Assembly (NCBI RefSeq): GCF_013122565.1
Contig: NZ_CP053258.1
Strand: one strand, 5' to 3'
DNA: 64,000 nucleotides
From: Escherichia coli
GTDB lineage: Bacteria > Pseudomonadota > Gammaproteobacteria > Enterobacterales > Enterobacteriaceae
In this document: positions 6,527-9,819 of the stretch, one piece after another
Position numbering within the stretch: the stretch's first letter is position 1
Layout of the letters: every line of letters starts with the position of its first letter
Made by a program: the position numbers and the translations under genes
The notes under the pieces: generated by a model
What the model was told of the DNA's origin: nothing
Database searches by the model: none
What the model saw: only the letters and a program-made list of their open reading frames with translations

Positions 6527-7452
6527 GTATTCGCATAATCCCGCAAGATGAGCTGGGTTCGGGCGAGAAACGTACGGCGGATATGATTCCGCCGTTATTG
6601 TTCCCTCGGCTCAAGAATTTATACAACCGCCGCGCCGAGCGTCTGCGCGAGCTGGCAGAAAATAATCCGCTGGGTGATTACCTGCGCTTTGCTGCGCTTA
6701 TCGCCCACGCCCAGGAAGTGGTGCTGTACGACCATCCGCTGGAGATGGATCTGACTGCACGCATTAAAGAAGCCAGCGCACAAGGCAAGCCCCCGCTGGA
6801 TATTCACGTTCTGCCGCGTGATAAGCACTGGCAAAAGCTGCTGATGGCGCTAATTGCTGAGCTGAAACCTGAAATGAGCGGCCCGGCGCTGGCAGTGATT
6901 GAGAATCTGGAGAAGGCATCGACTCAGGAGCTGGAAGATATGGCCAGCGCACTGTTTGCCTCTGATTTCTCATCCGTCAGTAGCGATAAAGCGCCGTTTA
7001 TCTGGGCTGCACTGTCGCTCTACTGGGCGCAGATGGCCAATCTGATCCCCGGCAAAGCCCGCGCTGAATACGGCGAACAACGTCAATATTGCCCGGTTTG
7101 TGGTTCTATGCCGGTGTCCAGCATGGTGCAAATTGGCACCACTCAGGGTCTGCGTTACCTGCACTGCAACCTGTGTGAAACCGAATGGCACGTAGTGCGC
7201 GTAAAATGCAGCAACTGCGAGCAGAGCGGCAAACTGCATTACTGGTCGCTGGATGACGAACAGGCCGCGATTAAAGCCGAAAGCTGCGATGACTGCGGCA
7301 CTTACCTGAAAATTCTCTATCAGGAAAAAGAACCGAAAGTTGAAGCCGTGGCAGATGACCTCGCCTCTCTGGTACTGGACGCACGAATGGAGCAAGAAGG
7401 CTATGCCCGCAGTTCCATCAACCCGTTCCTGTTTCCGGGTGAAGGGGAGTAA
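6523..7452 (+). CDS. fdhE: Formate dehydrogenase accessory protein FdhE
   Basis: 309 aa with CxxC pairs ([27 protein letters not shown]); overlaps fdoI stop. Confidence 0.9.
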
Positions 7453-7629
7453 TCTCTGACGTTTTCCGGGTGGCGCTGGTCGCCCGGATTACAGCTCATA
7501 GGGTGTGACGACACCATCTCTCGTATTCCGCGTTACCACCTCAAGCTATGCCGCCTGTGCCTGTTTGCCTCGTTCTTCCCTCCAACACATCGATAAGGTT
7601 ATTGGTATGTTACTGATGACAAGCGTAAG

Positions 7630-7745
7630 ATTGCCTGATGCGCTGCGCTTATCAGGCCTACCAATAAACTGCAATACATTGAATTTTCATGACTTTGTAG
7701 GCCGGATAAGGCGTTCACGCCGCATCCGGCATGAACAACGCACAC
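7630..7745. repeat. REP/BIME-type palindromic elements
   Basis: gcctgatgcgctgcgcttatcaggcctac and gtaggccggataaggcgttcacgccgcatccggca motifs typical of E. coli REP units. Confidence 0.75.
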
Positions 7746-7780
7746 GTTGTCAGCAATCTGATTGACATCATTTTTTCCCA

Positions 7781-8002
7781 TTACCCTTCCTCGCGCAGCT
7801 TACGCTGGTATTCGACACCATCTTCCTCATACACTTGCCAGATGCCAGGAACACTGGATCTTGCTGTTTGCAATTGATTTTCCAGGTATTGTTCTACCGC
7901 TTCTCGTAATAGGTCTGCACGCGGAAGATTACGCTGCACCTCAAGATCATCAAGTTGCTTAATCACCTCATTCGATAAATCGAGTAAAATTCTGCTCATA
8001 TC
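7781..8002 (-). CDS. yiiF: Ribbon-helix-helix (CopG/Arc-like) small DNA-binding protein
   Basis: ORF 7781-8038; likely start [12 protein letters not shown] at 8002; shares the REAVEQYLE motif with its neighbour. Confidence 0.7.
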
Positions 8003-8117
8003 CCAACCTGCCAGAGGGTTCGTAAATATTTCACCCATATCATTTTTGAATCTATGGAGAGAAAAGTACCCTTGCCGAATCTTAAAAGAAAGCTCATTTA
8101 CGCATCATTTTTTATTT

Positions 8118-8136
8118 TTGCGAGGCGTTTTCCAGA
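8118..8136 (-). promoter_or_regulatory. Conserved upstream motif ttgcgaggcgttttccaga, copy 1 (upstream of yiiF)
   Basis: Identical 19-mer recurs at 8557-8575 and, with one change, at 9788-9807, each about 90-120 bp upstream of a minus-strand start codon. Confidence 0.5.
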
Positions 8137-8241
8137 TATGATGTAACAGTTGCAGTTATTATAAGTTCAAGTAAAACAGTCTTGTATTAATACCAGAATA
8201 AGGGCATCTGGTTTTTATATTCAAGAATAATATATTTTTTG

Positions 8242-8460
8242 TCATTCCTTATGCTCCTTACACTGATCATCAACAACTACTGTCTCACCCCTTTGCCTGC
8301 CTCCCTTTGCTTTACGCACCGGAAATTGCTGCCGCTCCAGATATTGCTCAACCGCTTCGCGTAAAATTGCAGATCGTGAAACCTTACGCCAGCCCCGAAG
8401 CTTGTTCAGCCGTTTAATTGCCTCTTCTGATAAATGAAGAAAAACCGTATTCATCGTCAT
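8242..8460 (-). CDS. yiiE: Ribbon-helix-helix (CopG/Arc-like) small DNA-binding protein, paralog of yiiF
   Basis: ORF 8242-8469; [11 protein letters not shown] motif; tandem paralog of yiiF including its upstream region. Confidence 0.7.
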   Translation of the reverse strand: MTMNTVFLHLSEEAIKRLNKLRGWRKVSRSAILREAVEQYLERQQFPVRKAKGGRQRGETVVVDDQCKEHKE

Positions 8461-8556
8461 TGCCACCACCTAACATATATTATTCATTAATGTATGTACG
8501 AAAACTACGCCGGAAAATTAATTAACGAAAGCGGATTTTTGCATGTTGTTTTGTTT

Positions 8557-8575
8557 TTGCGAGGCGTTTTCCAGA
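8557..8575 (-). promoter_or_regulatory. Conserved upstream motif ttgcgaggcgttttccaga, copy 2 (upstream of yiiE)
   Basis: Same 19-mer as copy 1; also followed by the related gttgcagtt box seen after copy 1. Confidence 0.5.
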
Positions 8576-8985
8576 AATAATAAGAGCGTTGCAGTTGTTT
8601 CAATTGTTACTCAAAAATGGTTTAGTTATCGCCCAAAATGAATTATAGGTGCTATGAATATATTATATTCAGGGATATTTATTTTTTCATTGGATCTTTA
8701 TTTGCATAATCTGAATGGTGTAGCCGAAAAATGTCAGCATCCTAACAGCACCCGGATTTACGGTGAAATTAATCATCCATCACAGACCGGTCAGTACTGC
8801 TACCAACCGGTCTTAACTTGCTCATCGTTATAATTTTGTTGGTAACAGTTCGGGAAACAAGGAATTCCTTCCGGAACACCCCTGACATCATCCGATAGCA
8901 TTGACGTCAATCATCGGCGCGACGATGAGTTTTTTAATCGCATCATAGGGTGGCAACGGTCAGCACGATTACGGGTCATAGCAAA

Positions 8986-9090
8986 ACTCCTGAGCAGGTG
9001 GCACTACGCCGCTTTCACAGGAGTTCTGAATGCTGGTGCTTTCTGTATGGCATAACCATGCCTCTAACGGTTAAGTGCTTGCAGCACATG
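8986..9090. repeat. About 105-bp direct repeat, copy A (overlaps 3' end of antitoxin gene)
   Basis: aactcctgagcag..gccgctttcacaggagttctgaatgctggtgctttctgtatggc.. recurs at 10802-10906 with roughly 85 percent identity by eye. Confidence 0.8.
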
Positions 9091-9354
9091 TTGCGGATCA
9101 TTGGCAATCGCTCGCAGCAAAGCCTTTGCAGGCCCGGTCGGTGAACGTCGCCCCTGCTCCCAGTTACGCAACGTGTCTACACTTACAGAAATAAGATCGG
9201 CAAATTTAGATTGTGACAACCCTGAAGCGCGGCGTATTTCTTTGATTTTCATAGCATCAACTTCAAAAGTCCGCGAAGGCTGTCGCGTTCCTTCAATAAT
9301 TTCATTCATCTGGGCCATGCTGTGAGTCAACCGCTCAAAAAGTGCCTTATCCAT
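9064..9354 (-). CDS. HTH (XRE-family) antitoxin, HigA-like
   Basis: 96 aa; helix-turn-helix segment IRRASGLSQSKFADLISVSVDTLRNWEQG; start abuts the stop of the upstream toxin ORF. Confidence 0.7.
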   Translation of the reverse strand: MDKALFERLTHSMAQMNEIIEGTRQPSRTFEVDAMKIKEIRRASGLSQSKFADLISVSVDTLRNWEQGRRSPTGPAKALLRAIANDPQHVLQALNR

Positions 9355-9666
9355 TTACCACCTCGTATTTAACAACCGGAGCATTGCTTTTTCCTGGGGA
9401 GACAGATCATCTTTAATACCCTTACGATAAATAAGCAGTAATCTGATCTCATAATGTTTAACCTGATGAAAGTAAATAACCCTGACACCAGCACGTTTCC
9501 CCTTTCCTCCTGACACCCATCGAATCTTTCTTAACCCACCAGTTTCAGGTATTACCTCACCATAGTCAGGATTCAAGGCCAGGAAAAACTGAAAACGACT
9601 GAATTCATCGTCGGTCAGCAGTTTTTGAACATCTTCAGTAAAAATTTCCGTTTCGATGAAGAGCAT
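9355..9666 (-). CDS. RelE/HigB-superfamily (Gp49-like) toxin
   Basis: 103-aa basic protein placed upstream of an XRE antitoxin (toxin-first hig-type layout); conserved-looking GVRVIYF...LLLIYRKG core. Confidence 0.65.
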   Translation of the reverse strand: MLFIETEIFTEDVQKLLTDDEFSRFQFFLALNPDYGEVIPETGGLRKIRWVSGGKGKRAGVRVIYFHQVKHYEIRLLLIYRKGIKDDLSPQEKAMLRLLNTRW

Positions 9667-9787
9667 AATTATACGCCATTGGCTTAGAGTAACAATCCTT
9701 TTTGTACGTCATTGACGTACCCTTGAAACCACTAGCTTACTGATAGTGCTCCAGCAAAACCACGTCTCTGCCGGGTTTGTCTTTACA

Positions 9788-9807
9788 TTTGCGAGGCGCT
9801 TTCCAGA
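9788..9807 (-). promoter_or_regulatory. Conserved upstream motif tttgcgaggcgctttccaga, copy 3 (upstream of toxin-antitoxin operon)
   Basis: One-mismatch copy of the yiiE/yiiF upstream 19-mer, about 120 bp upstream of the toxin start. Confidence 0.5.
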
Positions 9808-9819
9808 TTTTTCACGCCC

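Follow-up and report, generated by a model that had tools for sequence, protein, structure and literature searches.

In a 64-kb stretch of Escherichia coli DNA (64,000 nucleotides of contig NZ_CP053258.1, RefSeq assembly GCF_013122565.1; the whole stretch is called the window here), a 19-nucleotide motif, TTGCGAGGCGTTTTCCAGA, is repeated upstream of the genes yiiF and yiiE and of a toxin-antitoxin operon. We consider it probable, with good confidence, that this motif is the core of a 22-bp CRP-S site, that is, a site for CRP that depends on the co-activator Sxy, and that CRP and Sxy would control yiiF, yiiE, the toxin-antitoxin operon and a divergently transcribed esterase gene. A preliminary description of this DNA had proposed that the motif wires the first three units into one circuit of their own. 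A shared cis-regulatory site and a likely common control of the three units are upheld here, but a circuit private to them is not, since the motif equals the published CRP-S consensus. The three units and the esterase gene would thus probably belong to one global regulon and not to a local circuit. Sites of this kind are well known; the toxin-antitoxin operon and the esterase gene are likely new members of the regulon.

Identity of the repeated motif

The window covers the fdoGHI-fdhE / yiiF-yiiE / fabY (yiiD) region of Escherichia. Exact copies of the 19-mer are found at 8118–8136 and 8557–8575, and a third copy, with a single mismatch, at 9789–9807. This agrees with what had been described, except that the third copy begins at 9789 and not at 9788. 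When both strands of the whole 64 kb were searched with up to three mismatches, these three were the only matches to the 19-mer. Shuffled sequences (n = 100) gave a mean of 0.01 matches, and none of the 100 reached three. All three copies are intergenic and lie 5' of genes on the minus strand. The distance from motif to start codon is 80 nt (ATG 8038) or 119 nt (ATG 7999) for yiiF, 97 nt for yiiE (8460) and 123 nt for the toxin gene (9666), so that the earlier figure of 90–120 bp was roughly right. The third copy sits between divergent genes, 88 nt from the start of a plus-strand α/β-hydrolase gene (9895). The copy is likely to serve this esterase gene no less than the toxin operon. Its original assignment to the toxin operon was incomplete in this respect: its most conserved partner is the esterase gene, and a promoter is predicted on the toxin side at an equal distance.

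Read on the plus strand, the copies have the form T-TGCGA-GGCG(T/C)T-TTCCA-GA. The CRP-S motif of E. coli, as quoted from Sinha et al. (2009) in Sondberg et al. (2019; PMC6728893), is 5'-T4G5C6G7A8-6N-T15T16C17C18A19-3'. All three copies agree with this consensus at ten of the ten core positions, and there is no other exact match in the window. At their full length of 22 bp they are site 1, 5' of yiiF (8116–8137, TTTTGCGAGGCGTTTTCCAGAT, half-sites TGCGA at 8119–8123 and TTCCA at 8130–8134), site 2, 5' of yiiE (8555–8576, TTTTGCGAGGCGTTTTCCAGAA, half-sites at 8558–8562 and 8569–8573), and site 3, which lies between the divergent toxin operon and esterase gene (9787–9808, ATTTGCGAGGCGCTTTCCAGAT, half-sites at 9790–9794 and 9801–9805). 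Each is an exact TGCGA-N6-TTCCA.

The CRP-S motif is asymmetric, works in either orientation and has a class I-like mode of action (Sondberg et al., 2019, PMC6728893). According to the same work, substitution to C6 lowers CRP binding about 80-fold, and Sxy dependence needs both of the unlike half-sites, two good halves giving activity that is independent of Sxy. In Enterobacteriaceae, CRP-S half-sites that lack C6 carry G6, and never T at position 6 (Cameron & Redfield, 2006). The second half-site of the window copies, TTCCA, reads TGGAA on the complementary strand and thus has G6, as this rule requires. An ordinary form of catabolite control, in which the sites bind cAMP-CRP alone and Sxy plays no part, could be argued from the closeness of TGCGA to the canonical TGTGA and from the weak binding of CRP to CRP-S sites in vitro. 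We regard it as unlikely, because of the effect of C6 on binding, because TTCCA is far from TCACA, and because it is this asymmetric combination that is reported to make activation dependent on Sxy.

A direct comparison with K-12 gives the same identification. The site in the K-12 sxy promoter, a genetically validated control, reads ATTTGCGAGGCTCTTTCCGAAA, and is identical to window site 3 at 18 of 22 positions. The K-12 ppdD site, ATTTGCGAGGCGTTACGAAGAA, lies inside a fragment used in a published CRP gel-shift; it shares TTTGCGAGGCG with all three window sites, and the 13-mer TTTGCGAGGCGTT with sites 1 and 2. At the yiiE copy, polymorphisms between E. coli strains are found only in the 6-nt spacer, which is GACGTT in O157 and GGTGTT in JCKP02. 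The regions upstream of K-12 hicA and higB lack TGCGA-N6-TTCCA and have TGGAA-N6-TTCC(A/T) instead, which makes them unsuitable as strict positive controls. The identity of the window sites to the consensus and to validated sites is thus a direct observation, from which we infer binding by CRP and Sxy and dependence on Sxy.

A published catalogue of CRP-S transcription units in E. coli reportedly holds 34 of them. Given their close fit to the consensus, the K-12 yiiE and yiiF sites may already be listed there (Sinha et al., 2009). In the literature that we searched, no paper was found that links Sxy to yiiE or yiiF, nor any description of the function or regulation of these two genes. The same literature yielded no description of how the toxin operon and the esterase gene, both absent from K-12, are regulated.

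Several other kinds of site were considered and dropped. As a sigma-70 -35 element (TTGCGA) the motif has no -10 at 16–18 nt on either strand. The sites of PurR, Cra, the LacI family, MarA/SoxS, CpxR and PutA gave partial half-site matches only.

Promoter geometry and the esterase gene

Putative -10 hexamers are found at the same distance from all three sites. In what follows the predicted transcription start is set 7 nt after the -10, and offsets are counted from the edge of the site. A CRP-S-dependent promoter for yiiF is predicted with the -10 TACTTT (8063–8068, minus strand) and a start at about 8056. The -10 predicted for yiiE is TAGTTT (8502–8507, minus strand), with a start at about 8495, and the block that contains it aligns with that of yiiF (GGGTACTTTTC and GCGTAGTTTTC, respectively). 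A distal promoter of the toxin-antitoxin operon, P1, is predicted with the -10 TAAGCT (9734–9739, minus strand) and a start near 9727. Sites 1, 2 and 3 would in each case be centred at -70.5, and the same position is predicted for site 3 with respect to the esterase gene, with a start near 9868.

This spacing recurs in orthologous loci of six other genera. A TAnnnT hexamer at an offset of 69–74 is present in 8 of 30 enterobacterial instances of the motif, against fewer than five at every other offset from 30 to 129. Orthologous pairs of a ribbon-helix-helix (RHH) gene, the family of yiiF, and a PIN toxin gene in Superficieibacter, Enterobacter sp., Lelliottia and Franconibacter have TATTTT, TACTTT or TATTCT at the identical offset, and the toxin operon of C. 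amalonaticus has TAAGGT there despite intervening insertions and deletions. In C. koseri, Salmonella and Pseudocitrobacter the hexamer is shifted by 1–2 nt (TAGGGT and TAGGCT in the latter two genera). At sxy, TAAGTT is at offset 70, compared to 69 in the window. The predicted centre at -70.5 would correspond to a recognised class I activator position, for example that of the CRP class I site of malT; the starts from which it is counted are predictions, as are the direction and size of the regulation. Class I positions have been listed near -62, -72, -83 and -93 (Cameron & Redfield, 2006).

The strongest conservation is seen on the esterase side. The gene (9895–10803, plus strand) encodes an α/β-hydrolase, an esterase of the hormone-sensitive lipase family, which matches the LipP1 family with E = 4e-71, below the curated cut-off. 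By protein similarity it is conserved across the Enterobacteriaceae. Its promoter core (9856–9878, plus strand) consists of a -10, TATAAA (9856–9861), followed directly by the LexA box CTGTACATTCATACAG (9863–9878). This is a perfect box, which fits the CTGT-N8-ACAG palindrome of LexA, overlaps the promoter, and is conserved in all of the orthologous promoters examined. The CRP-S site, the -10 TATAA(A/C) and the LexA box have a fixed spacing in every genus examined, namely Escherichia, Salmonella, Citrobacter, Enterobacter, Leclercia, Lelliottia, Pseudocitrobacter, Superficieibacter, Atlantibacter, Franconibacter and Phytobacter, while the intervening DNA is not conserved. Both the conservation across genera and the fixed spacing can be seen directly in the alignments. 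The arrangement predicts that the esterase gene is under the joint control of the SOS response (LexA) and of competence (CRP-Sxy).

Seven esterase loci were compared that had been collected by protein similarity and not by the motif, and which therefore form an unbiased set. Six of the seven keep the half-sites, and both are intact in Salmonella, Leclercia, Lelliottia and Pseudocitrobacter. There is one half-site change each in E. hormaechei (TTCAA) and C. koseri (TACGA), and in Trabulsiella, where the gene lies in another genomic context, the CRP-S site has been lost and the rest of the esterase promoter kept. The spacer varies among these loci, freely at its middle positions (GGCGCT, GACGCT, GCAGCT, GCCGCT and GCCTCT). 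Half-sites that are kept around a variable spacer are the pattern expected for a protein-binding site with two contacted half-sites.

These loci also bear on the nature of the protein. It had been proposed that the motif is an operator for YiiE and YiiF or for the antitoxin, through which the orphan RHH proteins would cross-regulate the toxin-antitoxin promoter. The motif does lie 5' of two RHH genes and a toxin-antitoxin operon, and RHH antitoxins commonly regulate their own synthesis. However, E. hormaechei and Leclercia keep the site at the esterase promoter although their interval from fdhE to the hydrolase gene is free of RHH and toxin-antitoxin genes, which speaks against the idea, as does the presence of the same sequence at sxy and at ppdD. 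Furthermore, the motif lacks symmetry and contains neither inverted nor direct sub-repeats, and its centre is some 60 nt 5' of the predicted -10s, so that it does not overlap the promoter. Better candidates for such operators are found near the start codons, namely ATATAC-N6-GTATAT in the RHH-PIN orthologues and the sequences GTACGTCATTGACGTAC and GCCAATGGC of the toxin operon. We therefore consider an RHH operator at the motif to be very improbable, and favour the CRP-S assignment.

The neighbouring genes and the motif in other genomes

The toxin-antitoxin operon (9064–9666, minus strand) has the toxin gene first. The toxin (9355–9666) belongs to the RelE/ParE superfamily and is HigB2-like; it has a weak match to PF06296 (E = 0.008), beyond which searches of PADLOC, NCBIfam and Pfam gave nothing significant, and its orthologue in ST131 is annotated as a RelE/ParE toxin. 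The antitoxin (9064–9354) is a helix-turn-helix (HTH) protein of the NadS family (NF041265, 60.7 bits with a cut-off of 60). In addition to the predicted P1, a strong proximal promoter is predicted (9668–9720 including its palindrome, minus strand), TTGTTA-16 nt-TATAAT (9695–9668), which matches the consensus at 10 of 12 positions. The perfect palindrome GTACGTCATTGACGTAC (9704–9720) flanks this promoter and GCCAATGGC lies inside its spacer; these two are likely to be the antitoxin operators. Only 2 nt lie between the end of the TATAAT and the toxin ATG; transcripts from the proximal promoter would begin at or inside this ATG and be either leaderless or without the toxin start. The elements of this promoter are conserved in C. 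amalonaticus, where identity is 71% for the toxin and 84% for the antitoxin. K-12 has neither the toxin-antitoxin operon nor the hydrolase gene. It shares the window sequence as far as 8857, and continues with an AT-rich segment containing a pseudogene fragment.

yiiF (7781–8038, minus strand) is an orphan antitoxin-type gene of the RHH (VapB-like) family; in C. koseri, Lelliottia, Franconibacter and Enterobacter sp. a PIN (VapC) gene comes after its orthologue. The start codon of K-12 yiiF (ATG AAC...) is ACG in the window, so that yiiF here starts at ATG 8038 (85 amino acids) or at an internal ATG at 7999 (72 amino acids). yiiE (8242–8460, minus strand) encodes an RHH/CopG protein. The paralogy of the two, which had been suggested from the sequence, is borne out by 46% identity over 52 amino acids (E = 3e-13). 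The DNA upstream of them is also paralogous, for about 100 nt at 72% identity, with a 27-nt core at 93%; the third copy shares the core alone.

Some further elements were noted around these two genes. A second block, GTTGCAGTT (AACTGCAAC on the gene strand), at 8144–8160 and 8585–8600, is about 14 nt beyond the CRP-S site. It is conserved 5' of both yiiF and yiiE and is absent at the third site, and could be a site for an RHH protein or for another factor. In yiiF-like genes with a PIN partner (loci L070, L072, L022 and L042), an inverted repeat, ATGATATACTGGAGGTATATATGAG, overlaps the ribosome-binding site and start codon. In the yiiF of Escherichia it is degenerate (ATGATATGGGTGAAATATTTACG). 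This repeat is likely to be a VapB operator, which would have decayed after loss of the toxin. Between fdhE and yiiF, at 7597–7751, is a cluster of palindromes of the type of repetitive extragenic palindromes and bacterial interspersed mosaic elements (REP/BIME), with sub-threshold matches to the Rfam families naRNA4 and ES036. In JCKP02 (L005) an IS621 is inserted in this interval. Structured RNA had also been considered, and in an Rfam scan of 7400–10000 these sub-threshold REP-related matches were the only ones. The roughly 490 bp from the yiiE CRP-S site to the antitoxin stop codon (8577–9063) contain no convincing gene, and have hairpins at 8784–8813 and 8982–9028.

On the far side of the esterase gene lies an open reading frame (ORF) of 617 amino acids (10972–12825, minus strand), which many E. 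coli lack, having fabY immediately next in line. Among 5,426 complete E. coli genomes about 1,060 carry it, annotated as a "hypothetical protein" and beside a transposase. It has no match in Pfam, NCBIfam or PADLOC. It contains CKSAKDRT, a CX5R phosphatase-like motif that, by eye, resembles effectors of the IpgD/SopB type.

A wider search for the motif was carried out by scanning about 100,000 species-representative genomes with the pattern TCTGGAAARCRYCTCGCAAA. This gave 51 loci. Some 20 of them come from unrelated phyla and mostly fall within long ORFs, as chance would give; about 31 are intergenic and belong to Enterobacteriaceae. The motif is thus neither a high-copy repeat nor confined to the three units. 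It is present in the interval between fdhE and the hydrolase gene in Citrobacter, Franconibacter, Atlantibacter, Phytobacter and Superficieibacter; 5' of RHH-PIN pairs; 5' of the HigB2-like toxin gene in C. amalonaticus; beside a Gp49-like/HTH pair in the infA-clpA interval; and, in several Escherichia species, in a relBE cassette at nrdG-cybC. A Gp49-like/HTH cassette at ilvY-ilvA carries it as well. There are also contexts other than toxin-antitoxin, for example the interval between a large lipoprotein gene (yfhM-like by eye) and a gene of the phosphotransferase system. The cassettes at nrdG-cybC and ilvY-ilvA carry the motif reversed with respect to the window, so that both orientations are seen relative to downstream toxin-antitoxin operons, as expected of CRP-S sites, as well as occurrences between divergent genes. 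These orientations and the many contexts mark it as a dispersed regulatory motif, which is not private to yiiE, yiiF and the toxin operon.

The occurrence in both orientations is of importance for a further alternative, a sigma-54 promoter. Written along the gene strand, the motif is TGGAAAACGCCTCGCA, in which GG and GC are spaced like the -24 and -12 elements, and TCTGGAAAACGCCTCGCAAA has a superficial fit to GG-N10-GC (TGG-N9-TCGCA); glnAp2 also has TCGC at -12. A promoter could not face both ways relative to the genes downstream, and the fully conserved bases include positions flanking the spacer that sigma-54 does not read. In K-12, chromatin immunoprecipitation sequencing detected a sigma-54 peak close by, in fdoI, and reported no peak at yiiE or yiiF (Bonocora et al., 2015), and genomic systematic evolution of ligands by exponential enrichment with RpoN gave no target there (Shimada et al., 2021). 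We give a sigma-54 promoter almost no credence.

Two of the toxin-antitoxin cassettes are small insertions. The relBE cassette at nrdG-cybC (locus L057, 2043–2757) and the Gp49-like/HTH cassette at ilvY-ilvA (locus L058, 1813–2774) both abut the stop codon of a housekeeping gene that runs convergently, and both have a site of the CRP-S type. At nrdG-cybC the insert has put its own bidirectional terminator in place of the native one, and its site has about 36 nt of extended similarity to that of yiiF (TTACAT..CAT.TCTGGAAAACGCCTCGCAAAAAT). Such cassettes raise the possibility that the copies in the window are non-functional relics of duplication, or the ends or attachment (att) sites of mobile toxin-antitoxin cassettes. 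In favour of this are the tandem duplication of yiiE and yiiF, which extends to their upstream DNA, the variability of the fdhE-fabY interval as a hotspot, and the relBE cassette, which carries the motif. It is nevertheless improbable. The core is 93–100% identical, compared to 72% for the flanks and 46% for the proteins, and the spacing to the -10s is conserved across genera. A comparison of empty and filled sites places the nrdG-cybC motif about 100 bp inside the insert and not at its boundary; the sequences on either side of the yiiE copy are also present in K-12, so that there is no att-type junction; and the window has only three copies.

In Enterobacter, Lelliottia and relatives (L009, L011, L016 and L020), the infA-clpA interval has a LexA-box-like sequence, ACTGT-N8-CCAG, separated by 18 nt from the CRP-S-type site. 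Here, for a second time, an SOS element and a CRP-S element stand side by side. They adjoin an ORF of 146 amino acids with no assigned family and, in one genome, the Gp49-like/HTH pair.

A number of points weigh against the CRP-S assignment and the promoters derived from it. The three copies are not independent, yiiE and yiiF being duplicates and site 3 perhaps their ancestor. The -10s and starts are predicted from weak hexamers, with 3 of 6 matches. The distal promoter on the toxin side is the weakest part, its hexamer drifting by 1–2 nt in Salmonella and Pseudocitrobacter, and the main (proximal) toxin promoter is 136 nt from the site, which is too far for class I activation. Finally, the scan pattern was derived from the window copies, and conservation of the half-sites among its matches is therefore partly an artefact; only the set collected by protein similarity is unbiased.

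We propose the following working model, in which the CRP-S site would be a low-affinity CRP site, at which cAMP-CRP activates only together with Sxy (TfoX). With Sxy present and cAMP at a high level, CRP-Sxy would turn on transcription of yiiF, of yiiE and from the distal toxin-antitoxin promoter, and from site 3 it would work the other way as well, on the esterase gene, which LexA would repress. The proximal toxin-antitoxin promoter is presumably repressed by the antitoxin, which would give a P1/P2 layout like that of hicAB. The ancestral state, as suggested by other genera, may have been a single bidirectional CRP-S site with the esterase gene on one side, and an RHH-PIN pair, a HigB2-like module or nothing on the other. 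In Escherichia the site and the RHH gene would have been duplicated in tandem to give yiiE and yiiF, with loss of the PIN toxin. YiiF would then be the orthologue of the RHH (VapB-like) partner, and the HigB2-like operon would now stand beside the original site.

A broader generalisation is offered tentatively, as a possibility that we rate below even chance: that toxin-antitoxin and orphan-antitoxin modules of several unrelated families (RHH-PIN, HigB2/NadS, RelBE and Gp49-like/HTH) have come recurrently under CRP-Sxy control in Enterobacteriaceae, some cassettes bringing their own site and one sharing that of an SOS-controlled esterase gene, and that the competence (Sxy) state arms these dispersed modules in a coordinated way. 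If true, the physiological link between DNA uptake and toxin-antitoxin systems would be wider than the few described cases. Placement in the regulon would give yiiE, yiiF, the strain-variable HigB2-like operon and the widely conserved esterase gene a testable regulator each. It would add to the unexplained connection of competence with toxin-antitoxin systems (hicAB, higBA, chpSB and toxTA), and it suggests that SOS (LexA) and competence (CRP-Sxy) signals converge on one promoter. We know of no natural condition that induces the Sxy regulon of E. coli.

Comparison with known CRP-S systems

The closest relative of the window sites is the sxy (tfoX) promoter site (Jaskolska & Gerdes, 2015; Sondberg et al., 2019). 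It also has 22 bp and is asymmetric, TGCGA-GGCTCT-TTCCG compared to TGCGA-GGCG(C/T)T-TTCCA in the window, and its conserved half is promoter-proximal, as at yiiF, yiiE and the toxin operon. It differs in that the second half ends in G, where the window has A, a better fit to the TTCCA consensus. The sxy site is experimentally validated, whereas the window sites are predicted.

The site of ppdD, considered together with hofM/yrfD (Cameron & Redfield, 2006), is about 135 nt from the ATG, compared to 131 nt at the toxin operon of the window. In contrast to the window sites, its second half-site, ACGAA, is degenerate. The genes downstream of these sites encode DNA-uptake machinery, and those of the window RHH proteins, a toxin-antitoxin pair and an esterase.

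The esterase gene has a parallel in sbmC, an SOS gene that is induced by Sxy and has the CRP-S site TGCGA-GTCTGC-TCGCA; the esterase gene likewise combines a CRP-S site with a LexA box. The sbmC site is, however, palindromic, with two halves of the TGCGA type, and the esterase is unrelated to SbmC and absent from K-12.

Control of toxin-antitoxin systems by Sxy has been described before. In K-12, chpSB, higBA and hokD are induced by overexpression of Sxy. The hicAB operon has a CRP-S-dependent promoter P1 and an antitoxin-repressed promoter P2 (Turnbull & Gerdes, 2017), and toxTA of H. influenzae is controlled by a CRP-S site (Findlay Black et al., 2020). In both, the distal CRP-S promoter is free of repression by the antitoxin, and the proximal, repressed promoter gives transcripts for the antitoxin only. 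These systems belong to the HicA/HicB or Gp49-like/XRE families, and the window operon is RelE/ParE-like with NadS; both of its promoters are predicted, and it shares its CRP-S site with a divergent gene. It resembles hicAB and toxTA in being a type II operon with the toxin gene first, in having a distal CRP-S site, and in having a second promoter at the start codon of the toxin gene.

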